Shown here: positions 8,457 to 44,689 of the stretch, in pieces
Position numbering within the stretch: position 1 is the first letter of the stretch
How the letters are laid out: each line of letters begins with the position of its first letter
The notes under the pieces: model-generated
What the model was told of the DNA's origin: nothing
Seen by the model: the letters and a program-made list of their open reading frames with translations, nothing else
Databases searched by the model: none
DNA from: an uncultured Alphaproteobacteria bacterium
GTDB taxonomy: Bacteria > Pseudomonadota > Alphaproteobacteria > HIMB59 > GCA-002718135
Reading direction: 5' to 3'
Assembly (NCBI GenBank): GCA_902601455.1
Contig: CACKNC010000001.1
Span: 167,162 to 231,161, forward strand
DNA length: 64,000 bases
Made by a program: the position numbers and the translations under genes

Positions 8457-8543
8457 GCGGCTGTGGCGGAATTGGTATACGCGCAGCGTTGAGGTCGCTG
8501 TGGGATTTATCCTGTGGAAGTTCAAGTCTTCTCAGCCGCACCA
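8457..8543 (+). tRNA. tRNA-Leu(GAG)
   Basis: Acceptor stem GCGGCTG/CAGCCGC, discriminator A + encoded CCA; anticodon arm CAGCG-TTGAGGT-CGCTG; long variable arm; GTTCAA T-loop; 87 nt. Confidence 0.95.
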
Positions 8544-11452: not shown

Positions 11453-12343
11453 ATGAAAATTGGTATTGATCTTGGTGGTACAAAGACCGAGGGTATTTTA
11501 ATAGACGATACAGGTAAAGAATTAGCAAGAAATAGAATTAAAACAGAGAAAAATTATGATGGCACTATAAGTGGTATTATTTCAATAGTAAAAAAGTTTG
11601 AAACTGATTTTGGGGATTCTGAATCTGTAGGAATAGGGATGCCAGGTTGTGTCTCTTCAGACTCAGCTTTAGTAAAGAATGCTAATTCAATTTGGTTAAA
11701 TGGTAAACCGTTTAAGAAAGATCTTGAAAAAGAACTTGAGAGACGAGTTAATTTAGAAAATGATGCCAACTGTTTTGCTTTATCAGAAGCAGTCGATGGA
11801 GCTGGAAAAGGTCATCCAGTTGTTTTTGGGGTAATTATTGGTACTGGAACTGGTGGGGGAATCTCTATAAACCAAAAAGTTCTTGCTGGAAAAAATAATA
11901 TAGCTGGTGAATGGGGACATGTTGGTCTTCCAAACAGATCTGATGATGAAAAAAAATATGTGAAACGATGTTATTGTGAAAAAAATGGATGTATGGAAAC
12001 ATATGTTTCTGGCCCCGGATTTGCAAGTTCTTTTAACTTAAAACATAAAACAGATTATGACTCTCACGCTATTTTAAATGAATTTAATAACAACGAAACT
12101 AGAGCAATTGAAGCTTTGGAAAATTATGTAGATCATCTTGCTAGAGGTCTATCTTTGGTTTGTAATATCTTAGATCCAGATATTATTGTCCTAGGTGGTG
12201 GAATGTCTAATATTTCATTTATTTATGAGCATATAAATACATCTCTTAAAAAATATATTTTTAGTGATACATTTAATACAAAAGTGGTAAAAAATGTTCA
12301 CGGTGACTCTGGGGGAGTAAGAGGTGCTGCTTGGCTCTCTTAA
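11453..12343 (+). CDS. ROK-family sugar kinase (Mak/fructokinase-like)
   Basis: GIDLGGTK, ENDANCFALSEAVDGAG, GTGTGGG, GEWGH, CYCxxxGCMET Zn motif, HGDSGGVRGAAWL. Confidence 0.88.
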   Translation: MKIGIDLGGTKTEGILIDDTGKELARNRIKTEKNYDGTISGIISIVKKFETDFGDSESVGIGMPGCVSSDSALVKNANSIWLNGKPFKKDLEKELERRVNLENDANCFALSEAVDGAGKGHPVVFGVIIGTGTGGGISINQKVLAGKNNIAGEWGHVGLPNRSDDEKKYVKRCYCEKNGCMETYVSGPGFASSFNLKHKTDYDSHAILNEFNNNETRAIEALENYVDHLARGLSLVCNILDPDIIVLGGGMSNISFIYEHINTSLKKYIFSDTFNTKVVKNVHGDSGGVRGAAWLS

Positions 12344-13791
12344 ATACCTGCCATTGAAATATATTTAATATTTAGATAGTCATCCAAGCCATATTTAGAA
12401 CCTTCTCTTCCAAGTCCTGATTCTTTTACTCCTCCAAAAGGTATTTCAGCTTTTGTAGTAAGGCCAGTATTTACACCTACCATTCCATATTCAAGAGCTT
12501 CTGCCACTCTCCAAATTCTTCCAATATCTCTAGAATAAAAATAAGAAGCAAGACCGTATGGTGTATCATTTGCCATTTTAATAACTTCTTCATCAGAGCT
12601 AAATTTATATAAAGGAGCTACAGGTCCAAAAGTTTCTTCATAAGTAATTTTTGCTTTGTTAGTTACATCAGATAGGACTGTTGGTTGAAAAAAATTACCA
12701 CCAAGTGAATGCACATCACCTCCAACAGCAATTTTTGCTCCCTGATTAACTGCATCTTTAACTTGATCCATAACTTTCATTAAAGAAGGCTGATCAATTA
12801 AAGGTCCAGATACAATTCCTTCCTCTAAACCATTACCAACTTTTATTTTATTTACTTCAGCAATAAACTTATTTAAAAATTCATCATAAACCTTTTCATG
12901 TACAAAAATTCTATTGGCACATATACATGTTTGCCCAGAATTTCTAAATTTACTTTGCATAGCTCCTGTTACAGCTTCATCTAAATCTGCATCATCAAAA
13001 ACTACAAAAGGTGCATGACCTCCAAGCTCCATAGAAACTTTTTTAACAGTAGTAGCACTTTGATGTAAAAGAACTTTTCCAACTTCTGTTGAGCCAGTAA
13101 ATGATATTTTTCTCACTAAAGGATTTTCAGTTAACTCTTTGCCAATAGCACTAGCTGATCCTGTGATTATATTTATTACACCATCAGGAAATCCTGCTTC
13201 TTTTGCTAATGCGCCAAGCGCTAGAGCAGAATATGGAGTTTGACTGGCAGGTTTGATTACAATAGTACATCCAACGGCTAGAGCGGGAGCACATTTTCTT
13301 GTTATCATTGTGCTAGGAAAGTTCCACGGTGTTATTGCACCTACAACTCCTACAGGTTGTTTTATAACAACTATTCTTCTATCTGGCATTGGATCAGGTA
13401 TTATATCTCCGTAAACTCTTTTCCCTTCTTCCGCATAAAAATCTATGTAGGTAACACCCATTAATATTTCACCTTTTGCTTCAGCTAAGGGTTTACCTTG
13501 TTCAATTGTCATTATTTTTGCTAAGTCATCAGCATTTGTTTCAATAAGTCTTGCCCATTTTTGTAAAATGACCGATCTCTCTTTAGCAGTTTTGTCTCTC
13601 CATGAAGGAAATGCAGCTTGGGCTTCTTGAATTGCCTTTTGCGTTTCTGAAGTTGAACATTTAGGAACTTCACCAATAATTTCACCATTAGCGGGATTAT
13701 CTACCTTGATTTTTTCACCAGTATCACTTTCAATCCATTTTCCACCGATAAAACAAGTTTCCTTAAAAAGTGTATTATTTTTTAGTTCCAT
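12340..13791 (-). CDS. gabD: NAD(P)-dependent succinate-semialdehyde dehydrogenase family (GabD; probable DoeC/Ssd role from context)
   Basis: ITPWNFPSTMITRK, FTGSTEVGK, MELGGHAPF, KFRNSGQTCIC, EETFGP, PFGGVKESGLGREG; divergent from eut genes. Confidence 0.88.
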   Translation of the reverse strand: MELKNNTLFKETCFIGGKWIESDTGEKIKVDNPANGEIIGEVPKCSTSETQKAIQEAQAAFPSWRDKTAKERSVILQKWARLIETNADDLAKIMTIEQGKPLAEAKGEILMGVTYIDFYAEEGKRVYGDIIPDPMPDRRIVVIKQPVGVVGAITPWNFPSTMITRKCAPALAVGCTIVIKPASQTPYSALALGALAKEAGFPDGVINIITGSASAIGKELTENPLVRKISFTGSTEVGKVLLHQSATTVKKVSMELGGHAPFVVFDDADLDEAVTGAMQSKFRNSGQTCICANRIFVHEKVYDEFLNKFIAEVNKIKVGNGLEEGIVSGPLIDQPSLMKVMDQVKDAVNQGAKIAVGGDVHSLGGNFFQPTVLSDVTNKAKITYEETFGPVAPLYKFSSDEEVIKMANDTPYGLASYFYSRDIGRIWRVAEALEYGMVGVNTGLTTKAEIPFGGVKESGLGREGSKYGLDDYLNIKYISMAGI

Positions 13792-13857
13792 ATTTACTTC
13801 CTCTTATTTATGTATTTATTGAATTATTTTATTAACTTTTAATTTATAGAGATAAAT

Positions 13858-14964
13858 ATGACAATAGTTAACTCGTGGAATGAATGGGATCCATTGAAGC
13901 ACGTAATCGTTGGTACAGTTGAGCAATCAAATATACCACCAATGGAACCTGCTTTGGAACCTAAAATTAGTAAAGATAGTGGTATGGCTGGATCACATGG
14001 ACCGCGTTCAAATGAGGCTATAGAAAAAGCAAATATACAACTTGATAATTTTGTTAAAATACTTGAGTCACACGATATAAAAGTAGATCGTCCTACACCA
14101 ATAGATTTTACAAAAGCAATCGCAACACCTGATTGGGAAAATGATGGACAGTTTGGATCCATGCCACCAAGAGATGTAATTCTAACAGTGGGTAATGAAA
14201 TGCTAGAAGCACCCATGTCATATCGTTGTAGGTGGTTTGAATATCTTGCTTACAGACCTTTACTCGAGAGGTACTATGATGAAGATCCTAATATGCGTTG
14301 GGAGTCTGCACCTAAACCAAGATTAACAAGTACAACTTATAAATCAAACTATATACCTGAAGGAATTACAGAGGAAGAAAGATACAAAAAGATTGAAAAT
14401 AGAGATATGATTTTAACAGAGCAAGAACCTTTATTTGATGCAGCTGAAGTTTTGCGCTTTGGAAAAGATTTATTTTATCATAATAATTTTACTTCTAACC
14501 TCAAAGGGCTGAACTGGTTAAAAAGACATTTTCCTAACCACCGTGTTCACCAAATAAATTTACCAGGAGAATTAATTCCAACTCATATAGATGCTTGTTT
14601 CACACCCATTAAACCAGGCACTATAATCATCAATCCTAATAGAAAAATTTCCAATGAGCAGAAAAAAATTTTTGATGATAATAATTGGGAGATTGTTGAC
14701 GCAGCCCCATCAGTGCACAATACACCACCTCCAATGTGTTATTCATCTATTTGGTTATCAATGAATGTTCTAATTTTAAATCCAACAACTATTTGTGTTG
14801 AAGCTTCTGAGGAAAAAATGATTAAACAAATGGAAGGATTTGGTATGACTGTTGTTCCTGTTCCTTTTAGAGATGTGTATGCTTTTGGTGGTAGTCTTCA
14901 TTGCGCAACAACTGATGTTTATAGAGAAGGCGAATGTGAAGATTACTTCCCAAATCAATCATGA
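13858..14964 (+). CDS. Amidinotransferase (glycine/inosamine amidinotransferase family, pentein superfamily)
   Basis: VNSWNEWDPLKHVIVG N-terminus, MPPRD, RWFEY; Asp/His/Cys triad motifs PLFDAA, THIDACF, GGSLHCAT. Confidence 0.88.
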   Translation: MTIVNSWNEWDPLKHVIVGTVEQSNIPPMEPALEPKISKDSGMAGSHGPRSNEAIEKANIQLDNFVKILESHDIKVDRPTPIDFTKAIATPDWENDGQFGSMPPRDVILTVGNEMLEAPMSYRCRWFEYLAYRPLLERYYDEDPNMRWESAPKPRLTSTTYKSNYIPEGITEEERYKKIENRDMILTEQEPLFDAAEVLRFGKDLFYHNNFTSNLKGLNWLKRHFPNHRVHQINLPGELIPTHIDACFTPIKPGTIIINPNRKISNEQKKIFDDNNWEIVDAAPSVHNTPPPMCYSSIWLSMNVLILNPTTICVEASEEKMIKQMEGFGMTVVPVPFRDVYAFGGSLHCATTDVYREGECEDYFPNQS

Positions 14965-15713
14965 GTAAATTTATACAGCATGATTTAATAGCAGACATTG
15001 TTAAAACTAATAATCCGAGAATTGGTGTCATTGCTTTATCAACAGATTTCACAATTGAACAAGATTATAGAAATATTTGTCACTCAGTTCCAGTAGATAT
15101 TTTTGTTAATCGTATACCTTTTGAAAATCCATTAAATCATGAAAATTATTTAAAAATGGCAGATTATATTAGTGAGGTCTCATCACAGATTTTACCATCT
15201 GAGGATATTGATATTATAGCATATGGATGCACTTCTGGAACGATCGCTATTGGGTCAGATAAAATAAAAGCAGAGGTCAATAAAACTAAACCAAATGCCA
15301 AAGTCACAACTCCAATAACAGCAGCGTTGAAAGCTTTTAAATATTTAGGTTTAAAAAATATTGCAGTTCTAACTCCTTATCCAAAAGATGTAAATGCAAC
15401 TGTTTATGATTACTTAATTGCTCATAATATTGGTATTGAGTCTTTTAGTTCTTTTAACTTAGAATATGACTCTGAAATTGCTCAAGTAAGTTTAGACAGT
15501 TTAGAAAAAGAAATTTCAAAAATTGATCTCAGTAATGTTGATGGATTATTTGTTTCTTGTACTGCTCTTAAAATTGTAGATGTATTAGAGAGAGTTGAAA
15601 GCTCTCAAAATACAGTAGTAATATCAAGTAATCAGGCTATTATATGGGATTGTTTAAGGTCAGTTGGTATTGAATCAAAAATAGAGGGCTATGGTAAATT
15701 ATTAGCCAGCTGA
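14961..15713 (+). CDS. eutA: Ectoine utilization protein EutA (Asp/Glu racemase / maleate isomerase fold)
   Basis: RIGVIALSTDFTIEQD, YGCTSG and FVSCTAL Cys pair, LTPY, SSNQA; precedes eutB-eutC. Confidence 0.8.
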   Translation: MSKFIQHDLIADIVKTNNPRIGVIALSTDFTIEQDYRNICHSVPVDIFVNRIPFENPLNHENYLKMADYISEVSSQILPSEDIDIIAYGCTSGTIAIGSDKIKAEVNKTKPNAKVTTPITAALKAFKYLGLKNIAVLTPYPKDVNATVYDYLIAHNIGIESFSSFNLEYDSEIAQVSLDSLEKEISKIDLSNVDGLFVSCTALKIVDVLERVESSQNTVVISSNQAIIWDCLRSVGIESKIEGYGKLLAS

Positions 15714-15751
15714 AATATGAAATTTTTTAAAACAAATAAAAGTAAATTATT

Positions 15752-16702
15752 TTGATAAATTTAGAGAAAATTAAAAAAGCACATGAAGCTATTTCTCCCT
15801 ATATCAATAGGACTCCACTTATATTATCAAATTATTTATCTAAAGATAGAATTGTTAAGTTAAAGTTAGAGTCACTTCAAATTACCAACTCCTTTAAATT
15901 ACGCGGTGCTACAAATAAATTATTGTCATTAGATAATGAACAAAAACAAAAAGGTGTAATAGCTGTATCTACTGGTAATCACGGTAAAGGAGTTGCCTAT
16001 GCTGCAAGTGTTCTTGGCATTCAATCAACAATCTATATGTCGTCAATGGTTCCTCAATACCGTAAAGAAGCAATTGAAGCCTTAGGTGCTAAAGTTCAAA
16101 TTATTGGCAATAATAGTGATGAAGCTGACTTGCATGCAAAAAAAATTTCGAAAGAACAAAATATTACTTTAGTTCACCCATTTGATGATGAAGAAGTAAT
16201 TGCAGGTCAAGGAACTGTGGGTTTAGAAATGCTAGAGGATTTTCCTGAGGTAGATACTGTTATCATCCCAACTTCTGGCGGCGGATTAATTGGAGGTATT
16301 GCTTTAGCTATTAAATTACAAAAACCATCTGTGAACATAATAGCAGTTTCTATGGAAAGAGGACCTTCTATGTATGAAAGTTTGAAAAATGGCAAACCAA
16401 CAGATGTTGAAGAGTTAGAAACATTGGCTGATTGCTTGGGTGGAAGTATAGGTTTGGATAATCAATATACTTTTAAAATAGCTCAAGATACAATTGATGA
16501 TTTTGTTCTCGTGAGTGAAAATAAAATTGCTGAAGGTATAAAATTTAATTTTATTGAACATAAACTTGTAACAGAAGGAGCTGCTGCAACAGGCGTCATG
16601 GTAGTTAAAGATAATATGTCTAAAAAAATTGGTAAAAATATAATTAGTCTAATATGTGGTGGAAATATTGATGCTGATCTTTTTAATAAAATAATTTCAT
16701 GA
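15752..16702 (+). CDS. eutB: Threonine dehydratase-like hydroxyectoine utilization dehydratase EutB (TTG start)
   Basis: KLESLQITNSFKLRGATN (PLP Lys), STGNHG, MSSMVP, SGGGL, LADCLGGSIGLDN. Confidence 0.85.
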   Translation: MINLEKIKKAHEAISPYINRTPLILSNYLSKDRIVKLKLESLQITNSFKLRGATNKLLSLDNEQKQKGVIAVSTGNHGKGVAYAASVLGIQSTIYMSSMVPQYRKEAIEALGAKVQIIGNNSDEADLHAKKISKEQNITLVHPFDDEEVIAGQGTVGLEMLEDFPEVDTVIIPTSGGGLIGGIALAIKLQKPSVNIIAVSMERGPSMYESLKNGKPTDVEELETLADCLGGSIGLDNQYTFKIAQDTIDDFVLVSENKIAEGIKFNFIEHKLVTEGAAATGVMVVKDNMSKKIGKNIISLICGGNIDADLFNKIIS

Positions 16703-17679
16703 CACTGATACTTAATTCAACCGAAATAAAAGATTGTGTGAAATTTAATAAAGACCTTATCCCAATAATCGAAGATGCATTTAAAAGCTTGTCACTGGGT
16801 AAAACAGTTATGCCTCCCATATTAAGAGTTGATATAGAAAAATATCATGGTGAGTCAGATGTGAAGGCAGCTTATATTGAGGGTTTAGATAGCTTTGCTG
16901 TGAAAGTTGCTTCAGGATTTTTTAATAATCCAAAGTTAGGTTTACCATCTAGTAATGGATTAATGATTCTATTAGACTCTCAAACAGGAGTTATCAAATC
17001 CGTACTTTTAGATAAAGGATATTTAACTGATGTCAGAACTGCTATTGCGGGAGCAATAGCGTCGAAATATTTATCTAATCCAGAATCTTCTACAGTTGCA
17101 ATAATTGGAGCTGGTATACAAGCGCGTATGCAACTTGAGGCACTAACGCTAGTAAGAGATATTAAAAATGTTAATGTATGGTCTCGAGATATAGAAAAAA
17201 CTCATGTCTATATTGAAAATATGAGTAAAAATTTTAATCTAAATTTTCAAGCTTTTGATAATACAGATGATTTAGTGAAAAATGCGGACATTTTAATTAC
17301 AACAACTCCAAGTAAAAACCCTCTTATAAAATATTCTTCATTACCTAGAGGAATTCATATTACAGCAATGGGATCAGATGCTGAGGAAAAAAATGAATTA
17401 GATCCAGAAATTATTGAAAATTGTGATGTTTATGTTCCAGATAATCAGGCTCAAACAATGATTTTAGGTGAGTTAAATCACGCTATCAAAAGGGATTCAA
17501 TTAAAAATGATACAATCTTTAATGATTTAGGAAAAGTAATTATTAACTCTAAATTAGGAAGAAAAAATCATGAGGATATTTCGGTGGCCGACTTAACAGG
17601 CACGGGAGTGCAAGACACAGCAATTGCTCGATATGCTTATGCAATTGCAGATAAAAAAAAATTAGGAATAATTGTTTAA
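16699..17679 (+). CDS. eutC: Ornithine cyclodeaminase-family ectoine utilization protein EutC
   Basis: MPPILR, KVASGFFNNPKLGLPSSNGLM, GYLTDVRTA, MGSDAEEKNEL, ADLTGTGVQDTAIA. Confidence 0.88.
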   Translation: MTLILNSTEIKDCVKFNKDLIPIIEDAFKSLSLGKTVMPPILRVDIEKYHGESDVKAAYIEGLDSFAVKVASGFFNNPKLGLPSSNGLMILLDSQTGVIKSVLLDKGYLTDVRTAIAGAIASKYLSNPESSTVAIIGAGIQARMQLEALTLVRDIKNVNVWSRDIEKTHVYIENMSKNFNLNFQAFDNTDDLVKNADILITTTPSKNPLIKYSSLPRGIHITAMGSDAEEKNELDPEIIENCDVYVPDNQAQTMILGELNHAIKRDSIKNDTIFNDLGKVIINSKLGRKNHEDISVADLTGTGVQDTAIARYAYAIADKKKLGIIV

Positions 17680-17691
17680 TAAATTAATTAT

Positions 17692-19986
17692 ATGACTAAT
17701 TTTGTTAGCACACATTGGGGAACATACGAAACTTCAAAAAATAATCAAAATAATATAAAGATTAATAAATGGTCAAAAGATCCAAATCCTTCTGATTTTG
17801 GACTAGGTTTTCTTGATGCAGCAACAAGTGATCTAAGAATCAATCAGCCGCACATAAGAAAAGAATGGCTTAAAGATCGACATAATAAAAAAAATCTAAG
17901 AGGCTTAGATGAGTTTGTTCCAGTATCATGGGAAGAAGCAATTGATTTAACAGCATCTGAACTTCAAAATGTAAAAAAAGAATTTGGTAATAGTTCTATT
18001 TATGCCGGTTCATATGGTTGGGCTAGTGCTGGAAGGTTTCATCATGCAAAAAGCCAATTAAATCGTTTTTTTAATTTATTTGGAGGTTTTTCATCTTCTT
18101 TTCAAAGCTACTCTTACGCAGCAGCCCAAACATTATTGCCTCATATAGTTGGTCATGACCTTTACTCCTTTTTGGATGAACATAATACTTGGAATACTCT
18201 TGAAAAAGAATGCGATTTAATAGTAATGTTTGGAGGAATGCCTTTAAAAAACTCTCAAGTATCTGCCGGTGGAGTTGGAAAGCACACTACAGAAAAAGAG
18301 TTAAGAAAATGTGTTAACGCAGGGACTAAATTTATAAATATTAGTCCAAATGCTAGTGACGCTGCTAAATTTCTGAATGCTAAACAAATATCTATAATCC
18401 CTAATACTGATACGGCTTTAATGTTAAGCTTAGCTTATATTTTAATTACTTCCAATAACTATGATCAAAAATTTATTGAAGAGTATACTAATGGCTTTAA
18501 CGAATTTAAATCATATGTTTTAGGAGAAAAAAATAATAAACCATGTACACCTGAATGGGCCTCAAGCATTACTTCAATACCTGTGGAAACAATAAAATGG
18601 TTAGCAAAAGAAATTTCTGCAAAAAAAACAATGGTCTCAGTTTCATGGAGTCTGCAAAGGGCTTCTGCAGGAGAACAGCCTTTATGGATGGGTATCACTT
18701 TAGCTTCAATGTTGGGACATATAGGAACTGAAGGAGGAGGGATTGGTTTTGGGTATTCAAGTGTTAATAGCACTGGTGATGTATTTAAAAAAATACCATG
18801 GAAAAGTTTACCTCAAGGTAATAATAAAATTAGAGATTTCATACCAGTAGCAAGGATTACTGATATGTTAGAAAAGCCTAATGAATTATTTCAATATGAT
18901 GGGCGTAAATTAAAATATCCTAATATAAAATTAATATATTGGGCGGGTGGTAATCCTTTTCATCATCATCAAGATTTAAATAGATTAGTTAAAGCATGGC
19001 AAAAACCAAAAACTATTATAGTAAATGAAATTTGGTGGAATGCACAAGCAAGACACGCTGATATTATTTTTCCTGCAAATACAGCTTTAGAGAGAAATGA
19101 TATTATGCTTAATCCAAGAGACCCGACCATTATTGCTAACAAAAAAACTATTTCTTCAGTTGGTGAGTCCAAATCAGATTATGAAATATTTTCTAGCCTT
19201 GCTAACAAACTAGGATTTAAAAATTTATTTACGGAGAATAAATCAGAGTTAGATTGGTTAAAATATTTGTGGAATGAAAGTATAAAAGTTTCTGAAGAAA
19301 TGAATCTCAAATTACCAGAATTTAATAAATTTTGGGAGGAAGGTTGCTTTGAAATACCAATTGAAAAAACAAAAAAAATTATGTTTAAAAATTTTAGAGA
19401 TAATCCAGTTAAAAATCCTTTGAATACACCTTCTGGTAAAATTGAAATAACTTCGAATATAATTAAAAATTATAATTTAAAAGATTGTAAAGGTCATCCT
19501 ACCTGGATAGAACCTTATGAATGGCTTGGAAACAAAGATAATTTTCCACTTCATCTAATATCAAATCAGCCAGAGTATAGACTGCATGGCCAATTAGATA
19601 ATGCAGATTATAGCCTTAAAAATAAAATTAAAGATAGGGAACCCGTATTAATTAATTCTGCAGATGCAAAAGAAAGAAATATTGAGAATAATGATATTGT
19701 TTTAATATTTAATAAACGTGGAAGAGTTTTTGCGGGAGCAAGATTATCTGATGAAGTTTCGAAAGGAGTATTAGTTTTATCTACAGGCGCTTGGTTCGAT
19801 CCTGATTATGAAATTAATGCAGATTTGCACGGAAATCCTAATGTATTAACAAATGATATTGGAACTTCATTACTCTCACAGGGCCCCACATCTCACACAT
19901 GTTTGGTAGAAATAAGAAAAGCAGAGAAAAATGAAATAAAAAAAGTTACGATTTTTTCAAAACCTCATATACAAAAAAAAGCTTGA
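17692..19986 (+). CDS. DMSO-reductase-family bis-MGD molybdoenzyme (BisC/TorZ-like S-/N-oxide reductase), no signal peptide
   Basis: THWG at N-terminus, GSYGWASAGRFHHA, SYSYAAA (Ser ligand), WAGGNPFHHHQDLN, TPSGKIEI, RLHGQLD, GNPNVLT; no twin-Arg leader and no N-terminal Fe-S Cys motif. Confidence 0.88.
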   Translation: MTNFVSTHWGTYETSKNNQNNIKINKWSKDPNPSDFGLGFLDAATSDLRINQPHIRKEWLKDRHNKKNLRGLDEFVPVSWEEAIDLTASELQNVKKEFGNSSIYAGSYGWASAGRFHHAKSQLNRFFNLFGGFSSSFQSYSYAAAQTLLPHIVGHDLYSFLDEHNTWNTLEKECDLIVMFGGMPLKNSQVSAGGVGKHTTEKELRKCVNAGTKFINISPNASDAAKFLNAKQISIIPNTDTALMLSLAYILITSNNYDQKFIEEYTNGFNEFKSYVLGEKNNKPCTPEWASSITSIPVETIKWLAKEISAKKTMVSVSWSLQRASAGEQPLWMGITLASMLGHIGTEGGGIGFGYSSVNSTGDVFKKIPWKSLPQGNNKIRDFIPVARITDMLEKPNELFQYDGRKLKYPNIKLIYWAGGNPFHHHQDLNRLVKAWQKPKTIIVNEIWWNAQARHADIIFPANTALERNDIMLNPRDPTIIANKKTISSVGESKSDYEIFSSLANKLGFKNLFTENKSELDWLKYLWNESIKVSEEMNLKLPEFNKFWEEGCFEIPIEKTKKIMFKNFRDNPVKNPLNTPSGKIEITSNIIKNYNLKDCKGHPTWIEPYEWLGNKDNFPLHLISNQPEYRLHGQLDNADYSLKNKIKDREPVLINSADAKERNIENNDIVLIFNKRGRVFAGARLSDEVSKGVLVLSTGAWFDPDYEINADLHGNPNVLTNDIGTSLLSQGPTSHTCLVEIRKAEKNEIKKVTIFSKPHIQKKA

Positions 19987-20019
19987 AGAAAAATATTAAT
20001 CAACTAGAAATTAAAACCG

Positions 20020-20796
20020 ATGAATAATATTATTGAATTTGAAAAAGTTTCAAAGTCTTTTGGAGACTTAAAAGTTTTAGATCAATTAAGTTTGGAAGTT
20101 AAAGATGGAGAAAAACTTGCATTAATAGGTCCTAGTGGATCAGGAAAAACAACAATTTTGAGAATTTTAATGACCCTAGAGACAATCGATGATGGTTTTG
20201 TATCTGTTAACAATGAATACTTATGGCATGAAAAAAAAGAAGGTAAAGTGGTTAATGCCTCAGATAATCATTTACAAAAAATGCGTGATCAAATTGGAAT
20301 GGTATTTCAACAATTTAATTTATTCCCCCATTTAACTGCAATAGAAAATGTTCAAGAACCTCAAATTCTTATAAAGAAAAAAAATAAATCTGAAGCACAT
20401 GATAAAGCTTCTGAATTATTTAATATGATTGGATTAAACGACAAAGTTGATCATTATCCTCATCAGTTATCAGGAGGTCAGCAGCAAAGAGTTGCAATAG
20501 CTAGGGCATTAGCGATGGACCCAAAGATTATGTTATTTGATGAAGTAACATCTGCTTTAGATCCAGAATTAGTAGATGAAGTTTTACAAGTTCTTCATAA
20601 ATTGGCATCAAGCTCTGACACAACAATGCTTACAGTTACCCATGAAATGAATTTTGCAAAAGATTTTGCTGATAGGGTTTTGTTTTTTGATAATGGTCAA
20701 ATTGTTGAGTCTGGAAAACCTAGTGATATTTTCACAAATCCCAAGGAAGAGAGAACTAGATCATTTCTTAAAAAGTTTATTACTGATATTAACTAA
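20020..20796 (+). CDS. ehuA: Ectoine/hydroxyectoine ABC transporter ATPase
   Basis: GPSGSGKTTILRILMTLE, LSGGQQQRVAIARALAM, LFDEVTSALDPELV; EhuA-type LWHE..ASDNHL insert. Confidence 0.85.
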   Translation: MNNIIEFEKVSKSFGDLKVLDQLSLEVKDGEKLALIGPSGSGKTTILRILMTLETIDDGFVSVNNEYLWHEKKEGKVVNASDNHLQKMRDQIGMVFQQFNLFPHLTAIENVQEPQILIKKKNKSEAHDKASELFNMIGLNDKVDHYPHQLSGGQQQRVAIARALAMDPKIMLFDEVTSALDPELVDEVLQVLHKLASSSDTTMLTVTHEMNFAKDFADRVLFFDNGQIVESGKPSDIFTNPKEERTRSFLKKFITDIN

Positions 20797-21253
20797 GAGG
20801 AATAGATAAGTTTTCTTTTACGCGATTCATCACAACCATTGAACTAAACCTTTTGATGTTATTATTATTTAAAAAATATTTTTGGGTAAATAGCTCGTAC
20901 TCTTCCATGTCTACAAAAGTTGCGATTAACACATAGTCATAATCACCAGTCACATAATAACACTGCATAACTTCTGGCGCTTTAATCATTAATTTTTTAA
21001 ATTCCTCACTATACTCAACCCCCTCCTTATCGCTTAGAACTTGAACAACAATAGTGATTTTTCGACCAAGAATATTGCGATCAATAATCGAAACATCTTT
21101 TTGTATAATGCCGGCTTTACGCATAGAGTTTATTCTTCTTTGACAAGCTGATGAAGATAAGCCAACTTCTTTTGCTAAAACTTCAGATGTTATTTTGTTA
21201 TTTTCTTGAATTAAATTAAGAATTTTTAGATCAACTGAGTCTATTTTATCCAT
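20789..21253 (-). CDS. Lrp/AsnC-family transcriptional regulator
   Basis: DLKILNLIQ, VGLSSSACQRRI HTH, PEVMQCYYVTGDYDYVL RAM domain. Confidence 0.92.
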   Translation of the reverse strand: MDKIDSVDLKILNLIQENNKITSEVLAKEVGLSSSACQRRINSMRKAGIIQKDVSIIDRNILGRKITIVVQVLSDKEGVEYSEEFKKLMIKAPEVMQCYYVTGDYDYVLIATFVDMEEYELFTQKYFLNNNNIKRFSSMVVMNRVKENLSIPLS

Positions 21254-21265
21254 ATGACACTATAT

Positions 21266-21310
21266 CACATAAATTTTGCATATTTTATTTAATTATGCAT
21301 TTTTTATGCA
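21266..21310. promoter_or_regulatory. Two putative Lrp/AsnC operator sites 30 bp apart
   Basis: TGCAT-TTTTT-ATGCA (21296-21310; palindromic arms) and degenerate CACAT-AAATT-TTGCA (21266-21280) between divergent lrp and ehuB. Confidence 0.55.
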
Positions 21311-21388
21311 AAAAACACTTAATAAAAAGTCACACTCTTAACAAGGATAATGCTAACTTATTTTTATAAAACATAAGGGAGGAAAATT

Positions 21389-22231
21389 ATGAAAAAAATA
21401 ATTTTATTTTTAGCTTCTTTTTTAATTCTTTTAGGTTCAGCTAAGGTTTCTTTTGCTGAGTCTGATACTTTAAAAAGATTAAAGAAGCAGGGTTATGCGA
21501 CAGTTGCTGTTGCAAATGAGCCGCCATATAGTGATATCAAAACTGATGGATATGTTACTGGTGCTGCTCCAGATGTTGCAAGAGCTGTACTAAACATTCT
21601 TGGTGTTGCAGATTTAAAAGCTGAAGTAATTATGTATGGAGCTATGATACCTGCACTTCAAGCACGAAGAGTAGATATGGCAACTTCAGGTCTTTATATT
21701 AAACCTGATAGGTGTGAGTCTATTATTTATTCTGAACCTGATTTATGTGGAGCGGAAGCTTTTGCAGTTCCTGTTGGAAATCCAAATAACTTGCTTACGT
21801 ATGAAGACATTGCAGCACAGCCTGATTTAAAAATGACTACTTGTGCTGGATGTGCTGAGGAAAAATATGCTTTAGAAAGAGGCGTTTCAGCTGATCAGAT
21901 TGTTTATTTTGATACACCTCCAAGTGGTATCAAAATGCTTCAACAAGGTAGAGTAGATGTATTTGCGCTTTCTGGCTTAGGTACTCAGGATTTATTAAAT
22001 AAAACAAATGACCCTAATCTAGAACTAGTTATGCCTATTACTGGTGTTCCAATTGGATGTGCTGGAGCTGCTTTTAACATGGATGACATAGAGTTCAGAG
22101 CTGAATATAATATGGCACTAGCAAAACTAAAAGCTACTGGAGAGTTTGCTGCTATCATTGAACCATATGGTTTTTCTGCGGAAGCAACCGCTGGTGAGTC
22201 ATATCTTACAAGATGTCCAGACGGAAAATAA
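21389..22231 (+). CDS. ehuB: Ectoine/hydroxyectoine ABC transporter substrate-binding protein EhuB-like
   Basis: Signal peptide, VAVANEPPY, GAAPDVAR, YGAMIPALQARR, GLYIKPDRC; SD GGGAGG. Confidence 0.85.
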   Translation: MKKIILFLASFLILLGSAKVSFAESDTLKRLKKQGYATVAVANEPPYSDIKTDGYVTGAAPDVARAVLNILGVADLKAEVIMYGAMIPALQARRVDMATSGLYIKPDRCESIIYSEPDLCGAEAFAVPVGNPNNLLTYEDIAAQPDLKMTTCAGCAEEKYALERGVSADQIVYFDTPPSGIKMLQQGRVDVFALSGLGTQDLLNKTNDPNLELVMPITGVPIGCAGAAFNMDDIEFRAEYNMALAKLKATGEFAAIIEPYGFSAEATAGESYLTRCPDGK

Positions 22232-22249
22232 ATTAACTTTTAAATTATT

Positions 22250-22281
22250 TTGCCCTGTATTATTACAGGGCAATTTTTTTT
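22250..22281 (+). terminator. Intrinsic terminator/stabilising hairpin after ehuB
   Basis: TTGCCCTGTA-TTAT-TACAGGGCAA followed by T-run. Confidence 0.85.
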
Positions 22282-22284
22282 AAT

Positions 22285-22953
22285 ATGAAAGAAGTTATAG
22301 CCTTTTATCCAATTCTAATTGACGGTACAATTACGACAATTATTTTAACACTTTTAAGTGCTGTGTTAGCCCTTTTTATTTCTTTTGTTGTAGGTCTATC
22401 GAGAATTTCAAAATTTAAAATAGTCAGAATTTTAGCAATAATTTATTTAGAGTTTTTCAGAGGTAGTTCTGCTCTTGTGCAAATGTTTTTTATTTATTTT
22501 GTTTTACCAATGTGGGGGATTTACTTCGATGCTCTAACAGCTGGTGTTATTGCTATTGGGTGTAATTTGGGAGCATATGGGTCAGAAGTAGTGAGAGGTG
22601 GAGTGCTTGCTGTTGGTAAAGAACAGCATGAAGCTTCATTAGCATTAAATTACTCTCCCTATAAAAGATATAGGTATGTAATTATACCTCAAGCAATTCC
22701 AGTTATGATTCCTACTTTTGGAAATTTATTAATTGAGCTTCTTAAGTTAACTGCAGTAGCATCTCTTATTACGATTTCAGACTTAACATTTATGGCTCAC
22801 ATAATTAGAGTTCAGACAGCCTTAACCTTAGAACCTTTCTTAGTGATATTGGTAATTTATTTTATCATCGCTTCAATTTTAGTGAAAATCGTCGACATAA
22901 TTTCTAATAAATTTTCTAAGGGAAGAAATATTATGATGGCGGGAGAAAATTAG
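22285..22953 (+). CDS. ehuC: Ectoine ABC transporter permease EhuC
   Basis: YLEFFRGSSALVQMF, GAYGSEVVRGG, PTFGNLLIELLK. Confidence 0.85.
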   Translation: MKEVIAFYPILIDGTITTIILTLLSAVLALFISFVVGLSRISKFKIVRILAIIYLEFFRGSSALVQMFFIYFVLPMWGIYFDALTAGVIAIGCNLGAYGSEVVRGGVLAVGKEQHEASLALNYSPYKRYRYVIIPQAIPVMIPTFGNLLIELLKLTAVASLITISDLTFMAHIIRVQTALTLEPFLVILVIYFIIASILVKIVDIISNKFSKGRNIMMAGEN

Positions 22954-22955
22954 AT

Positions 22956-23615
22956 ATGTATTGGAGTTGGGAAGTCGCTTTTGATGTATTGCCACAACTA
23001 GCAAAAGGAGTTGTAGTAACTATTCAAGCAACAATTGTTGCATCTATACTAGCTTATGTTTTGGGACTTGGAATAGCTATTTTAAAAATGTCCAAAAGTA
23101 AACTATTGAGAATTGTTTTATATTGGACCACAGAATTTATAAGAAGAACTCCAATCTTAGTTCAACTTTATGTTGTTTTTTATGTTTTACCTGACTACGG
23201 TATTTTTTTTGAAGCTTTTACTTGTGGAGTCTTGGTTTTGGGTATCCATTTTAGTACCTATACTGCTGAGGTCTTTAGGGCTGGTATTGACAATGTTCCA
23301 AAAGGTCAATGGGAAGCAGCAAAATCATTAAATTACAACCAAGTTCAGACTTGGAAAAATGTGATTTTGCCACAGGCAATACCGCCTATGATTCCTCCTC
23401 TCGCAAACTATTTAATCACTATGTTCAAAGAAACACCTTTGCTAGCAGCTATAACCGTTGTTGAATTATTTAGAGCAGCAGACCAGTATAGTAATAGTCA
23501 TTATAAATATCTTGAACCAATGACATTAGTCGGAGTTTTTTTCCTAATAGTCTCTATTCCTTCAGCAATCATAGCTATGAAGTTAGAAAAACGTTTTAAA
23601 CAAAGAAAGATTTGA
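22956..23615 (+). CDS. ehuD: Ectoine ABC transporter permease EhuD
   Basis: WSWE N-terminus, EFIRRTPILVQLY, AEVFRAGI, VPKGQWEAA, MFKETPLL. Confidence 0.85.
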   Translation: MYWSWEVAFDVLPQLAKGVVVTIQATIVASILAYVLGLGIAILKMSKSKLLRIVLYWTTEFIRRTPILVQLYVVFYVLPDYGIFFEAFTCGVLVLGIHFSTYTAEVFRAGIDNVPKGQWEAAKSLNYNQVQTWKNVILPQAIPPMIPPLANYLITMFKETPLLAAITVVELFRAADQYSNSHYKYLEPMTLVGVFFLIVSIPSAIIAMKLEKRFKQRKI

Positions 23616-23617
23616 TT

Positions 23618-25060
23618 ATGCAAAGTAATGTTGTTGAAAAGACTGCAAAATATTTCAAGGAGAAAGGTGTTGTTCTTCCAACAATATCTGAATTAAAAAA
23701 ACCAGATTCAATAAATGAGGATATTAAAAATAAAGTTTTAAAGCTTGATAAAAACGCTATGGATCCGGCAAATTTATTTAGAGTGCACTGGTTTAATAAA
23801 AGAGATCATAGTAAATTTTTAGATGTTCCTGAACATATTGTTTTACCAAGTGAGTTTACAGGTGTTGAAGCAAAAATTATTGTCAATCTTGGTCGTTATT
23901 TCCCACTTATTACCGCACATAAAGTTTTGGCAGCATATGGTTGTTTACTGCCTAGAATTTTGAATGGTTCATTTGATTATACTAAACATAAAGCTGTTTG
24001 GCCTTCTACTGGAAATTACTGCAGAGGAGGCGTAGCTATTTCTAAAATATTAGGTTTTAAAAGTGTAGCAATTCTCCCTGAAGGAATGAGTAAGGAAAGA
24101 TTTAATTGGCTTGAAAAATGGGTCGAGAATAAAAATGATATTATAAAAACTACTGGAACAGAAAGTAATGTTAAAGAAATATATGATGCCTGTAATGAAT
24201 TAGAAAAAGATAAAAATAATGATATTATTAATCAATTTGATGAATATTATAATTATGCAACTCATAGAGCTATTACTGGATCATCATTTGAAAAGTCTTT
24301 TTTAAAAGTAAAAGGTGACTCTAATCTTAGAGCTAGATTTTATGTTTCTGCATCCGGTTCAAGTGGAACACTAGCTGCGGGAGATTACTTAAAAGAAAAT
24401 CTTAACGCTCAAATTGCAGTTGTTGAAGCTACTGAATGCCCAACTCTTCTTTATAATGGTTACGGCGAACATAATATTCAGGGTATTGGAGATAAACATG
24501 TTCCTTTAATACATAATGTTATGAATTCAGATTATGTAGTTGGTGTTTCAGACGAAGCTACAAATAATCTTAATTTATTATTTAATACAGATGAAGGTAA
24601 AAATTATTTAATAAAAAGAAAAGGGTTTGACCCAGATTTTGTAGATAGATTGCCTGAGTTTGGGTTTTCTTCAATTGCCAATATTATTGCTTCTATAAAA
24701 CTTGCTAAAAAAATGAAGCTAACAAAAAATGACGCTATTATAACGGTGGCAACTGATGGAGCTGATTTATATGAAACGGAACTAGCTAAAACAAAAAAAC
24801 AATTTAGTAAAATTTATGATCAGGTCACTTGTGCAGAAATTTTTGCAAAAAATTTTGAAGCAATAACAGTAGATCATACTTTGGAGTTAAGTCAAATTGA
24901 TAAAGAGAGGATTTTTAACTTAGGTTATTATACTTGGGTTGAACAACAAGGAACTAGTTTAGAGGAATTTGAAAGTAGAAGATCTCAGTCTTTCTGGGAT
25001 AAGCATTACAAAGAGATGATTTCACTTGATGAAAAAATTAAAGAGTTTAATTCTCTTTAG
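23618..25060 (+). CDS. Fold-type II PLP-dependent enzyme (cysteine synthase/TrpB superfamily), function unknown
   Basis: AHKVLAAY (PLP Lys), WPSTGNYCRGG, SASGSSGTLAAGD, HNIQGIG; ATG at 23618 preferred over TTG at 23612. Confidence 0.8.
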   Translation: MQSNVVEKTAKYFKEKGVVLPTISELKKPDSINEDIKNKVLKLDKNAMDPANLFRVHWFNKRDHSKFLDVPEHIVLPSEFTGVEAKIIVNLGRYFPLITAHKVLAAYGCLLPRILNGSFDYTKHKAVWPSTGNYCRGGVAISKILGFKSVAILPEGMSKERFNWLEKWVENKNDIIKTTGTESNVKEIYDACNELEKDKNNDIINQFDEYYNYATHRAITGSSFEKSFLKVKGDSNLRARFYVSASGSSGTLAAGDYLKENLNAQIAVVEATECPTLLYNGYGEHNIQGIGDKHVPLIHNVMNSDYVVGVSDEATNNLNLLFNTDEGKNYLIKRKGFDPDFVDRLPEFGFSSIANIIASIKLAKKMKLTKNDAIITVATDGADLYETELAKTKKQFSKIYDQVTCAEIFAKNFEAITVDHTLELSQIDKERIFNLGYYTWVEQQGTSLEEFESRRSQSFWDKHYKEMISLDEKIKEFNSL

Positions 25061-25064
25061 TTAA

Positions 25065-26222
25065 ATGAAAACACAAGGACTTCACAATCAGTTGGTTGAG
25101 TGGAGACATGATTTGCACATGCATCCCCAAATCAGTTTTGAAGAAGAATACGCTTCAAATAAAGTAGTCAATTTACTCAAAGATTTTGGCATAGAAGTAC
25201 ATGAGGGAATTGCTAAAACAGGAGTAGTTGGTGTTTTAAAAAAAGGTACTAGTAATAAAAGTATTGGTATTAGAGCAGACATGGATGCTTTACCAATTAA
25301 TGAAATAAATACTTTTTCTTATAAATCTACGATTGAAAACAGAATGCATGCTTGTGGTCATGATGGGCACACAACGATGTTATTAGGTGCTGCAAAATAT
25401 TTAGCAGAACAAGGAAATTTTGATGGCACTATTTATTTTATTTTTCAGCCAGATGAAGAGAATACCCTTGGGGCTAAAACAATGATTGAGGAAGGTTTGT
25501 TTACTAATTTTTCTATAGATGAAGTTTATGGAATGCATAACATACCCGGAATGGAATTAGGAGAATTTGGAACAAGAAAAGGTGGAATAACCACTAGTGA
25601 AAATTTATTTGAAATTTTAATTAAAGGTAAGGGCGGTCATGCAGCTTTGCCTCATATGTCAAAAGATACAATTACCATAGGTAGTCAGATTATATTAGCT
25701 TTACAAACTATTGTATCACGTAAATTAGATCCGGTAGCAGCTGGAGTTGTTTCTGTAACTGAGTTTATTACTGATGGTAAAAAAAATGTTTTGCCAGGTA
25801 ACGGCTTGATAAAAGGAGACGCGAGAGCATTTTCTCAAGAAACTAATAAAATGATTGAAAAAAATATGCGCCAACTTGTTGAAGGTATCTCAAGTTCTTT
25901 TGGAGTTTCTGCTGAAGTAAAGTATGAAACAACTTGTCCAGTAACTTTTAATCAACCTAAACAAGCAGAAGCAGCAACAAAAGCTGCTATCACCTTATTA
26001 GGAGAAGATAAATGTAATGGCGATATTGATCCAAGACCTTTTTCAGAGGATTTTTCAATTATGTCAGAGCATACTCCTGGATGCTTTGTATTAATGGGCA
26101 ATGGAACTTCAGGTTCATATGGAAGACCATTACATTCTGCAGATTATGATTTTAATGATGAGTTATTAGTTAAAGGCTCTTCTTACTGGGTAGAACTTGC
26201 TGAACAACAATTAAAATTATAA
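25065..26222 (+). CDS. M20D (Acy1/hippuricase-like) amidohydrolase
   Basis: WRHDLHMHP, RADMDALP, MHACGHDGH, FQPDEE, GKGGHAA, SEDF, LHSADYDFND. Confidence 0.9.
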   Translation: MKTQGLHNQLVEWRHDLHMHPQISFEEEYASNKVVNLLKDFGIEVHEGIAKTGVVGVLKKGTSNKSIGIRADMDALPINEINTFSYKSTIENRMHACGHDGHTTMLLGAAKYLAEQGNFDGTIYFIFQPDEENTLGAKTMIEEGLFTNFSIDEVYGMHNIPGMELGEFGTRKGGITTSENLFEILIKGKGGHAALPHMSKDTITIGSQIILALQTIVSRKLDPVAAGVVSVTEFITDGKKNVLPGNGLIKGDARAFSQETNKMIEKNMRQLVEGISSSFGVSAEVKYETTCPVTFNQPKQAEAATKAAITLLGEDKCNGDIDPRPFSEDFSIMSEHTPGCFVLMGNGTSGSYGRPLHSADYDFNDELLVKGSSYWVELAEQQLKL

Positions 26223-26245
26223 TTTTTATTTAATGAAAATTTAAG

Positions 26246-28416: not shown

Positions 28417-28422
28417 GTAAAA

Positions 28423-29424: not shown

Positions 29425-29574
29425 GTTATTCCTTTTAAATTTTTATGCTAATGTGTCTATTTATAGCGCATTTACAATAAGGATTAAATGGCTAAAGATA
29501 TATCTATATTTTAATTTGTTTCAAAATCTGAAACTTATTATTTTGGTCTAAACATATGAGGATATAGGAATTTT

Positions 29575-39059: not shown

Positions 39060-39113
39060 ATACAAATATATATAGTGGATTATGATTTTTTTCACTATTA
39101 GAAGTTAAATAAT

Positions 39114-42124: not shown

Positions 42125-42244
42125 TAAAAACTCTATTTTCTGCGTCTTTTTTCCCCTTTTTTTTAGTTTTTCTACATGTTAAGAGGTGTTTATATATCGA
42201 CATATATAATCTTAAGATTAATTAATTAAAACAGGAGGAAACAT

Positions 42245-43348: not shown

Positions 43349-43379
43349 GGTTGATAAAGTAAATAAATTAATTTAATTT

Positions 43380-43405
43380 AAAGGCGAGATTTTTCTCGCC
43401 TTTTT
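43380..43405 (+). terminator. Hairpin + T-run after the SBP gene
   Basis: AAAGGCGAGA-TTTT-TCTCGCCTTT-TT. Confidence 0.8.
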
Positions 43406-43421
43406 AATTTGGGAGGTTTGT

Positions 43422-44687: not shown

Positions 44688-44689
44688 AT

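Follow-up and report, generated by a model that had tools for sequence, protein, structure and literature searches.

The 64,000-nucleotide stretch of contig CACKNC010000001.1 analysed here (the window), which derives from an uncultured alphaproteobacterium of the HIMB59 lineage, contains an uninterrupted open reading frame (ORF) at positions 13858–14964 of the forward strand that starts with ATG and encodes a protein of 368 amino acids (P0001; this ORF and its product are referred to as AMT). Sequence comparison confirms AMT as an intact amidinotransferase of the AGAT/StrB1 type, belonging to the guanidino-group-modifying enzyme superfamily. It is a so far uncharacterised enzyme of a known family, placed unusually among catabolic genes, and a useful lead to the use of guanidino compounds by streamlined marine bacteria. 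With a probability of about 0.5, we favour the reading that AMT is a reversible, arginine/ornithine (Arg/Orn)-dependent enzyme for the salvage of amidino groups, which acts on guanidinoacetate-type donors and is co-expressed with an island of osmolyte-catabolic genes. The small nitrogen-rich molecules consumed by these streamlined alphaproteobacteria, which are abundant in the ocean, are only partly known.

Identity and active site of AMT

A phmmer search of the PDB aligned residues 4–364 of AMT with human AGAT (1jdw; E = 3e-72), and other near full-length matches were SxtG (6u1r; 3.5e-66), HsvA (5wpi; 2.5e-59), and StrB1 (1bwd; 2e-54). The motifs FDAAE (Asp194, codon 14437–14439), THIDA (His243, codon 14584–14586), and LHCAT (Cys349, codon 14902–14904) are aligned to the human AGAT motifs FDAAD, MHIDA, and FHCWT, and the three residues thus correspond to the triad Asp254-His303-Cys407 given for AGAT in the available text of PMC3684758. 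The original prediction, made from the letters alone, had recognized an intact amidinotransferase by the motifs FDAA, HIDA, and LHCAT, and the open 368-residue frame and the PDB alignments bear this out. Counted along the phmmer alignment, Asp106, Asp245, Arg262, and Ser296/Ser297 of AMT align with Asp170, Asp305, Arg322, and Ser354/355 of AGAT, which we take to be the residues binding the guanidino and amino acid moieties of Arg/Orn. In an alignment of 80 sequences (AMT and 79 homologues), the positions equivalent to AGAT Asp170, Asp254, His303, Asp305, Arg322, Ser354, and Cys407 are identical in all 80, and the position equivalent to Ser355 (AMT Ser297) is identical in 78 and Thr in the other two. 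Given this near-invariance of the catalytic and Arg/Orn-site positions, AMT is taken to be functional as an amidinotransferase, Arg/Orn serving as one of its substrate pairs.

No family match for AMT was returned by Pfam or NCBIfam at default thresholds, and raising the E-value limit to 10 yielded solely PAD_porph (1.2e-3) and DUF6873 (0.19); a precomputed PF02274 assignment is carried by some of the homologues that are 61–65% identical to AMT. At E ≤ 0.001, 2629 of the 3559 candidate proteins fall into the AMT family. Five close homologues (P0021, P0023, P0028, P0092, and P0104) bear the NCBI name 'serine/threonine protein kinase', which nothing observed in this analysis backs, and others are named 'glycine amidinotransferase' by JGI. 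Because the family is large and several members carry the kinase name, a tested function would correct many annotations.

The active-site lid distinguishes AMT from its characterized relatives. The AGAT-type 300-flap Asp-Pro-Asn-Pro-Met is not present in AMT, which has Glu-Leu-Ile-Pro-Thr instead; lids of the window's clade read DLIPT or ELIPT, and those of most marine homologues read DPYPI. According to the accessible part of PMC4887976, the lids of AGAT, CyrA, and AmtA are DPNPM, DIFPS, and DMHPM, respectively. As the lid varies among characterized members in this way, the flap marks specificity and not family membership. With its hydrophobic-hydrophobic-Pro-hydroxyl pattern, ELIPT is closer to the lid of CyrA than to that of AGAT. 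AMT thus shares with AGAT (AGAT/GATM, EC 2.1.4.1; PDB 1JDW/1JDX) and with cyanobacterial CyrA/AoaA full-length homology, the triad, and the residues of the presumed Arg/Orn site, but it differs from both in its lid residues and in lying in a catabolic/import context of a free-living marine heterotroph, not in one of creatine or toxin biosynthesis.

Gene contexts inside and outside the family

AMT was found in 50 of the 61 genomes of the genus, at 82–95% identity, and beyond the genus in 91 of the 115 other family members surveyed; the second family of the order has it in 1 of 71 genomes surveyed. This wide distribution in genus and family at high identity indicates that the gene has been kept under constraint. 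The sole match in the second family (G136:C5:2369-3469, the same locus as L015) is 91% identical. Its 17-kb contig carries the same operon, though with just a partial EutA-like match (116 bits), and looks either misbinned or recently acquired by transfer. In one genome of the genus (G070; C1:83199-84300), AMT is split into two matches that overlap but are read in different frames (residues 1–145 and 139–367), which represents a frameshift or a sequencing error. Close relatives appear in public records under the labels Pelagibacteraceae, Pelagibacterales, or uncultured Alphaproteobacteria.

In 26 of the 28 loci in which AMT is at least 85% identical to that of the window (close loci), a gene for an EutA-like protein (Table 1) begins 0–6 nt past the last aligned AMT codon. 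One of the two remaining loci ends within AMT at a contig end. The other (L037:10001-11074, from a single-cell assembly) has AMT aligned to residue 358 only, followed by 10 kb that matched no operon query, and represents a rearrangement or a chimeric assembly. The divergent pairing of AMT with a minus-strand gene for an SSADH-like aldehyde dehydrogenase was found in 27 of the 28 close loci; it is unseen in L027, whose contig starts 717 nt before AMT. The original prediction had placed AMT at the head of the EutABC-like genes, an order that proved to be conserved across genomes of the family, and had named as contrary evidence a complete lack of eut or ehu genes beside close homologues, whereas AMT-EutA adjacency was found in the 26 loci above.

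This pattern extends to six other genera of the family, represented by seven loci. The flank BioY-ROK-SSADH(−)|AMT is present in six of these loci, none of the three upstream genes having been found in L123, and AMT is followed by EutA in six and by EutD in the seventh. The order AMT-EutA-EutB-EutC-PLP-M20-M24-dehydratase-like-Sox (PLP, a gene for a pyridoxal phosphate-dependent enzyme) occurs in four loci from three of these genera, in which AMT is 63–83% identical to that of the window, and L123 (AMT, 86%) has the same order from AMT-EutABC to Sox without a dehydratase-like match. Of the others, one reads AMT-EutA-EutD-dimethylsulfoniopropionate (DMSP) demethylase, and one has AMT-EutD followed by a homologue of DMSP demethylase (42% identity). 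The BisC-Ehu-AsnC insertion of the window is shared by only 3 of the 28 close loci (L014, L017, and L018); in most other relatives, the PLP gene directly follows EutC and is accompanied by the M20, M24, and dehydratase-like genes. AMT is the constant head of a variable downstream island and occupies a fixed position after BioY-ROK-SSADH. Because the flanking BioY-ROK synteny is shared within this one family, the association between AMT and eut genes has a single origin, with no independent replication.

AMT is the first plus-strand gene after a divergent spacer of 66 nt, and its stop codon (TGA, 14962–14964) overlaps the ATG (14961–14963) of the EutA-like ORF, forming ATGA at 14961–14964. The window has 43 pairs of neighbouring ORFs on the same strand; overlaps occur in 10 of them (by 4 nt in 5), and 21 more are spaced by 0–20 nt. 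Since overlaps are common in this compact genome, the ATGA overlap fits co-transcription, but alone it shows no functional link; the overlap that had been taken as evidence of translational coupling is therefore real but not a special sign. Rfam at gathering thresholds detected no RNA element or riboswitch upstream of AMT, its only hit being a tRNA at 8457–8540, and a promoter scan of 12200–30000 was uninformative (66 promoter-like sites versus 83.7 expected from shuffles). We infer that AMT is probably co-transcribed with the downstream island. Complex prediction for AMT and the EutA-like protein (two alignments, two runs) gave a score of 0.00 and 'no answer', which counts neither for nor against. 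One good terminator-like hairpin in 12200–30000 (a 10-bp stem followed by a T-run, 22250–22273) lies directly 3′ of ehuB; intra-operon terminator or attenuator hairpins often follow genes for binding proteins.

The neighbourhood survey that the original prediction had proposed was run and gave a divided answer: eut genes adjoin AMT in the window's family, and outside it AMT does not lie beside eut genes. The survey outside the family covered 52 loci, whose enzymes are 61–65% identical to AMT. Twenty-one of these, all from Pelagibacteraceae, show the arrangement EamA transporter-AMT-threonine-aldolase-like gene, and in 6 of the 21 a creatinase gene (E = 8.5e-160 to PDB 7yto) is located directly upstream of AMT. 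The downstream gene encodes a PLP-dependent aldolase, the best match of which is a weak one to the GntG family (74 bits; cut-off, 230). Threonine aldolase yields glycine, and creatinase (via sarcosine), threonine aldolase, and AMT acting on guanidinoacetate would all be glycine-yielding. Operons with all four genes, EamA-creatinase-AMT-PLP aldolase, were found at L077:5961-12153 (a 'Candidatus Pelagibacter communis' record) and L129:8367-12663, and in L077 MobA-like and MoeA molybdenum-cofactor genes are located just upstream of the operon. No description of this Pelagibacteraceae operon was found in a literature search. Its AMT belongs to the same family as that of the window (61–62% identity), with identical catalytic and Arg/Orn-site residues. 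The operon differs in its creatinase and threonine-aldolase-like neighbours, in the DPYPI lid, and in the slow evolution of the enzyme, as opposed to the long branch of the window's clade.

Among the remaining loci of this survey, 4 contain EamA only, 6 adjoin a flavin adenine dinucleotide (FAD)-dependent monooxygenase, 16 have other neighbours, and 1 is an EutA-EutD locus of the window's own family. The other four, from two phyla (Hyphomicrobiaceae and Desulfosarcinaceae; L055:5167-9780, L051, L059, and L064), carry a PotABCD-type importer beside AMT, with the ATPase gene 121–1331 nt off. The Pot importer of the window is homologous to these importers, with identities of 65–68% for the ATPase, 46–55% for the permeases, and 41–42% for the binding protein. 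An importer that adjoins AMT there and has a homologue in the window argues for an imported substrate rather than the synthesis of a secondary metabolite.

In an evenly drawn class-level sample of 401 genomes, which included the window's genome and one of its genus, 11 genomes gave matches at E ≤ 1e-60, namely these two, three with weak matches (36–39% identity), and 6 of the 399 other genomes with an AMT homologue at 58–64% identity. One of the six is a creatinase operon of the Pelagibacter type. The six loci, from six other alphaproteobacterial families, have no eut gene beside AMT; in the Pelagibacter-type locus, a weak EutD-family match lies ∼1.3 kb off. In the three class-level loci scanned against Pfam, the neighbours encode a transposase, an EamA transporter, a methyltransferase, efflux components, a lipase, and a beta-lactamase-family protein.

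Proposed function and alternative readings

By the ping-pong mechanism of the AGAT family, the amidino group of a guanidino donor would first be bound covalently to Cys349 (S-amidino intermediate), with the help of His243 and Asp194, and then be passed to an acceptor amine. The enzyme would work mainly in the salvage direction, converting a dissolved guanidino acid and ornithine into arginine and a free amine (glycine, sarcosine, gamma-aminobutyrate (GABA), or taurine), so that all of the donor nitrogen would be retained. We infer this direction and the substrates from the gene contexts. Guanidinoacetate would be the most likely donor, with creatine, 4-guanidinobutyrate, and taurocyamine as possible ones. 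Members of the family catalyse a reversible reaction, and both AGAT and CyrA accept guanidinoacetate as donor (PMC4887976, available part). AMT heads a variable island of catabolic modules for osmolytes and nitrogen-rich metabolites: besides EutABC-like and EutD-like proteins and M20 and M24 hydrolases, these encode DMSP demethylase, sarcosine oxidase, a dehydratase of the hydroxyproline type, and importers. Three kinds of neighbours point to an imported guanidino substrate that is used catabolically, namely creatinase, aldolase, and EamA genes in Pelagibacteraceae, importers elsewhere, and osmolyte-catabolic genes in the window. The most economical reading is probably that guanidinoacetate (or an N-amidino or omega-guanidino acid) and ornithine are converted to arginine plus an amine that the cell can use, e.g. 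glycine. The transfer of an amidino group from a guanidino acid to ornithine had also been put forward in the original prediction; it is chemically reasonable and fits the Arg/Orn residues and the creatinase context, but the tie to ectoine breakdown that came with it is not supported. If AMT is catabolic, the cell would gain from guanidinoacetate or creatine a carbon skeleton (e.g. glycine) and the whole amidino nitrogen (as arginine), without release of urea. SAR11 bacteria require glycine.

Several observations weigh against the salvage reading. A quick maximum-likelihood tree of 69 rows, rooted at the midpoint, sets the three genera of the window's clade apart by a long stem (0.63 + 0.28 substitutions per site; SH-aLRT, 100), and at 34 positions, those of the changed lid among them, the clade has fixed residues of its own; the remaining family (Alphaproteobacteria and Thermodesulfobacteriota) is very conserved. 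With such a stem and a derived lid, the substrates of the clade may differ from those of the creatinase-linked homologues, and a shift in specificity for the donor or the acceptor is possible. AMT is tightly joined to EutA-like genes across deep divergence (AMT identity down to 63%), with an EutD-like gene in the seventh locus from other genera, and so persistent a link to ectoine-type genes could reflect a shared pathway. No creatinase orthologue was found in the window's genome (1.42 Mb, 39 contigs, 86% complete), the best matches being 25% identical. The closing of an Orn/Arg shuttle by arginase and urease was considered and is not supported, as no arginase above the cut-off and no urease were found in the genome, which has two agmatinase-family genes. 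These absences rest on a genome that is 86% complete. Four RNA-library runs (three studies) contain contigs with 90% or higher similarity for all 30 bins (28 bins in one run), and one over 14691–15042 (10 other letters in 352) spans the AMT/EutA junction. This evidence consists of assembled contigs whose depths cannot rank genes; since others span the divergent SSADH/AMT spacer and DNA carry-over is possible, they were not counted as evidence of a single transcript.

The setting of the gene raises the question of whether AMT is a step of ectoine catabolism. In the available portions of PMC8739950 and the Vibrio diabolicus paper, the pathway runs from ectoine through N-acetyl-diaminobutyrate (ADABA) and diaminobutyrate (DABA) to aspartate without any guanidino compound, EutABC are needed for the use of hydroxyectoine, with activities described as unknown, and no amidinotransferase is among the genes named in the described clusters (supplementary tables outside the scope). 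This agrees with the remark in the original prediction that AMT is not part of described ectoine catabolism, and the guanidino-diaminobutyrate intermediate suggested there is absent from the pathway as given in these portions. Ectoine, ADABA, and DABA bear an acetamidine group or amines, not a guanidino group. A literature search (supplementary files outside the scope) found no paper that, judged by its title and the opening of its abstract, ties an amidinotransferase to ectoine catabolism. EutD-like genes were detected in 25 of the 61 genus genomes (E ≤ 1e-60): 19 genomes contain both genes, 31 AMT only, and 6 EutD only. Where both lie on one contig (14 genomes), they are 12.7–23.7 kb apart. 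Seven of the AMT-only genomes are 87–90% complete, so incompleteness does not account for the EutD gap. This distribution suggests repeated loss or gain of the ring-opening EutD step while the EutABC-like genes stay. A reverse search from the EutD-like protein was tried as a source of contexts and set aside, for it gave 13 loci, 10 of them at 85–96% identity, and no independent contexts. A direct role of AMT in ectoine breakdown is not shown by these results.

A true step of a (hydroxy)ectoine-type pathway, in which DABA or hydroxy-DABA would be the acceptor or donor partner or Cys349 would attack the cyclic amidine carbon as a hydrolase-like ring opener where EutD is missing, is in our judgement unlikely. 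It would account for the adjacency of AMT to EutA or EutD in all seven loci from other genera and to EutA in 26 of the 28 close loci, for the insertion of a bona fide Ehu-type importer into the window's operon, and for a clade with a derived lid and a long branch. Moreover, EutE (TIGR02994) has no match in the genome (86% complete), and the DABA transaminase Atf/DoeD (TIGR00709) is absent from the cluster, its best match in the genome scoring 166.6 bits against a cut-off of 401.6; these gaps imply that the pathway of this lineage has unknown steps. The retention of all Arg/Orn-binding residues, however, fits guanidino chemistry with Arg/Orn, which the catabolites of ectoine, as described in the portions cited above, do not offer. 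The association goes back to the single origin noted above, and the AMT/EutA overlap is ordinary in the window. Genera with an unchanged, slowly evolving enzyme also bear the same EutABC-like genes. A coupling of the lid change to the eut link was considered and rejected, as two genera with AMT-EutABC keep DMYPI or DPFPT and the EutD-linked genera keep DPYPI.

It is very improbable, in our estimate, that the core AMT-EutA-EutB-EutC, with the hydroxyproline-type dehydratase and the Ldh_2 dehydrogenase, degrades not ectoine but a beta-hydroxylated guanidino or diamino acid, e.g. of the 3-hydroxyarginine type or an N-amidino-hydroxy-amino acid. AMT would remove the amidino group, EutB would dehydrate the product to an imine or 2-oxo acid, and EutC or Ldh_2 would reduce it, possibly from pyrroline-2-carboxylate to proline. 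Consistent with this proposal, 31 of the 50 AMT-bearing genus genomes showed no EutD-like gene, Ehu genes are confined to the window and three of the 28 close loci, and the operon holds the trans-3-hydroxyproline-dehydratase-like and Ldh_2 genes. The EutB-like and EutC-like proteins also match models of beta-hydroxyaspartate dehydratase and iminosuccinate reductase (208 and 178 bits, respectively), and the beta-hydroxyaspartate pathway contains such a dehydrate-then-reduce enzyme pair. The Pelagibacteraceae gene 3′ of AMT is likewise a beta-hydroxy-amino-acid enzyme (the aldolase with the weak GntG match). Nevertheless, the EutA-, EutB-, and EutC-like proteins score best on ectoine-type models, near the cut-offs, the modules may be mere independent neighbours, and hydroxy-guanidino acids are not, to our knowledge, reported to be significant in seawater. 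A related proposal, which must be called quite unlikely, is that AMT of the ELIPT-lid clade was recruited as an entry enzyme that passes the amidino group of a beta-hydroxylated or cyclic guanidino or amidino amino acid to ornithine or glycine and thereby feeds an 'epimerise, dehydrate, reduce' sequence of EutA-EutB-EutC; the 'eutABC' of these abundant ocean bacteria would then serve the catabolism of guanidino compounds besides, or instead of, that of hydroxyectoine.

The chances also appear slim that AMT is biosynthetic, forming guanidinoacetate, taurocyamine, or creatine and ornithine from arginine and glycine, taurine, or sarcosine, with a product that serves the cell, e.g. as a solute. 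This is the classical direction of AGAT, CyrA, StrB1, and AmtA in the available parts of PMC3684758 and PMC4887976. In a seawater tracer study, creatine was labelled from sarcosine, for which the accessible text proposes an unidentified enzyme or a reversible creatinase (PMC9321204); AMT might account for this labelling, which we regard as a lead only. In one paper from a literature search for amidinotransferases and SAR11 (supplementary files outside the scope), GATM appeared only as a KEGG-based taurine-to-taurocyamine step, listed as such for marine metagenome-assembled genomes in the portion available. Against biosynthesis, catabolic genes and importers neighbour AMT in every context seen, no methyltransferase or kinase partner is adjacent, and a streamlined oligotroph has no evident use for a guanidino product that costs arginine.

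The ectoine-type locus of the window

Features of the window around AMT are listed in Table 1. As judged from family assignments, the locus is of the ectoine-catabolic type but non-canonical, so that the original prediction had the setting right in its main lines. EhuABCD is assigned as an ectoine/hydroxyectoine-type ABC importer inserted between the EutC-like and PLP genes. As in described ectoine clusters, the window contains EhuABCD, EutA-, EutB-, and EutC-like proteins in the order eutABC, an EutD/DoeA-like protein, an AsnC-type regulator, and an Ssd-like aldehyde dehydrogenase. Unlike those clusters, it has neither EutE nor a cluster-encoded Atf, and EutD is located 20.6 kb downstream, after the sox genes. 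AMT, the CysK-fold PLP enzyme, the M20 and M24 hydrolases, and the proline-racemase-family gene are additions relative to the clusters as described in the available texts. The DoeB2-like M20 gene may stand in for the missing deacetylase.

Table 1. Features of the window at and around AMT
Feature	Position	Strand	Basis or remark
SSADH/Ssd(DoeC)-like aldehyde dehydrogenase	12340–13791	−	TIGR01780, 716 bits (cut-off 646); Pfam Aldedh; divergent from AMT
Divergent intergenic spacer (66 nt), presumed promoter region	13792–13857		Between SSADH and AMT
AGAT-family amidinotransferase AMT, 368 aa (P0001)	13858–14964	+	Triad Asp194, His243, Cys349; lid E238-L-I-P-T242
EutA-like two-cysteine racemase/isomerase-fold protein	14961–15713	+	TIGR02990, 212.9 bits (below cut-off 318); Pfam Amdase
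EutB-like PLP-dependent beta-hydroxy-amino-acid dehydratase	15752–16702	+	NF005680, 386.3 bits (cut-off 413); Pfam PALP
EutC-like protein, ornithine cyclodeaminase/mu-crystallin family	16699–17679	+	NF006141 (PRK08291 cyclodeaminase), 451 bits (cut-off 408); TIGR02992, 421.7 bits (cut-off 471.65)
BisC-family molybdopterin S/N-oxide reductase	17692–19986	+	TIGR00509, 910 bits (cut-off 1017); part of insertion
EhuA	20020–20796	+	397.6 bits, above NCBIfam cut-off
AsnC/Lrp-type regulator	20789–21253	−	Convergent
EhuB, EhuC, EhuD	21389–23615	+	288.9, 231.8, 275.9 bits, all above NCBIfam cut-offs
CysK-fold PLP enzyme, 482 aa	23612–25060	+	Family scans
M20 amidohydrolase, DoeB2-like	25065–26222	+	314 bits (cut-off 550)
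M24 creatinase/prolidase-like hydrolase	26246–27394	+	Nearest solved relative creatinase 1chm, just 3.7e-22
Proline-racemase-family protein, trans-3-hydroxyproline-dehydratase-like	27394–28416	+	Family scans
Ldh_2-family dehydrogenase	28423–29424	−	Family scans
SoxB, sarcosine-oxidase-type	29575–30840	+	TIGR01373, 593 bits
Putative SoxD, SoxA, SoxG (three ORFs)	After SoxB, to 34633	+	Read from ORF listing
EutD/DoeA-like ectoine-hydrolase homologue	35530–36702	+	TIGR02993, 472 bits (cut-off 613); E = 7e-110 to DoeA structures 6twk/6twj
PotABCD-type ABC importer: ATPase, SBP_bac_8 binding protein, two permeases	41027–45586	+	Family scans

The Eut models are the best NCBIfam matches of the EutA-, EutB-, and EutC-like proteins, all of which score below the cut-offs of these models. 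Cysteines 90 and 200 of the EutA-like protein are invariant in the 18 aligned sequences. For the binding protein of the Pot-type importer, the nearest solved relative is PDB 8jv1, named spermidine/putrescine-binding, and other relatives bind GABA or opines. Within the BisC-EhuA-AsnC-EhuBCD block (17692–23615), the molybdoenzyme sits inside an ectoine-type importer block. The EutD-like gene is closely followed by an ORF of 569 amino acids (37386–39095) without a Pfam or NCBIfam match and by a gene of the M19 membrane-dipeptidase family (39114–40088).

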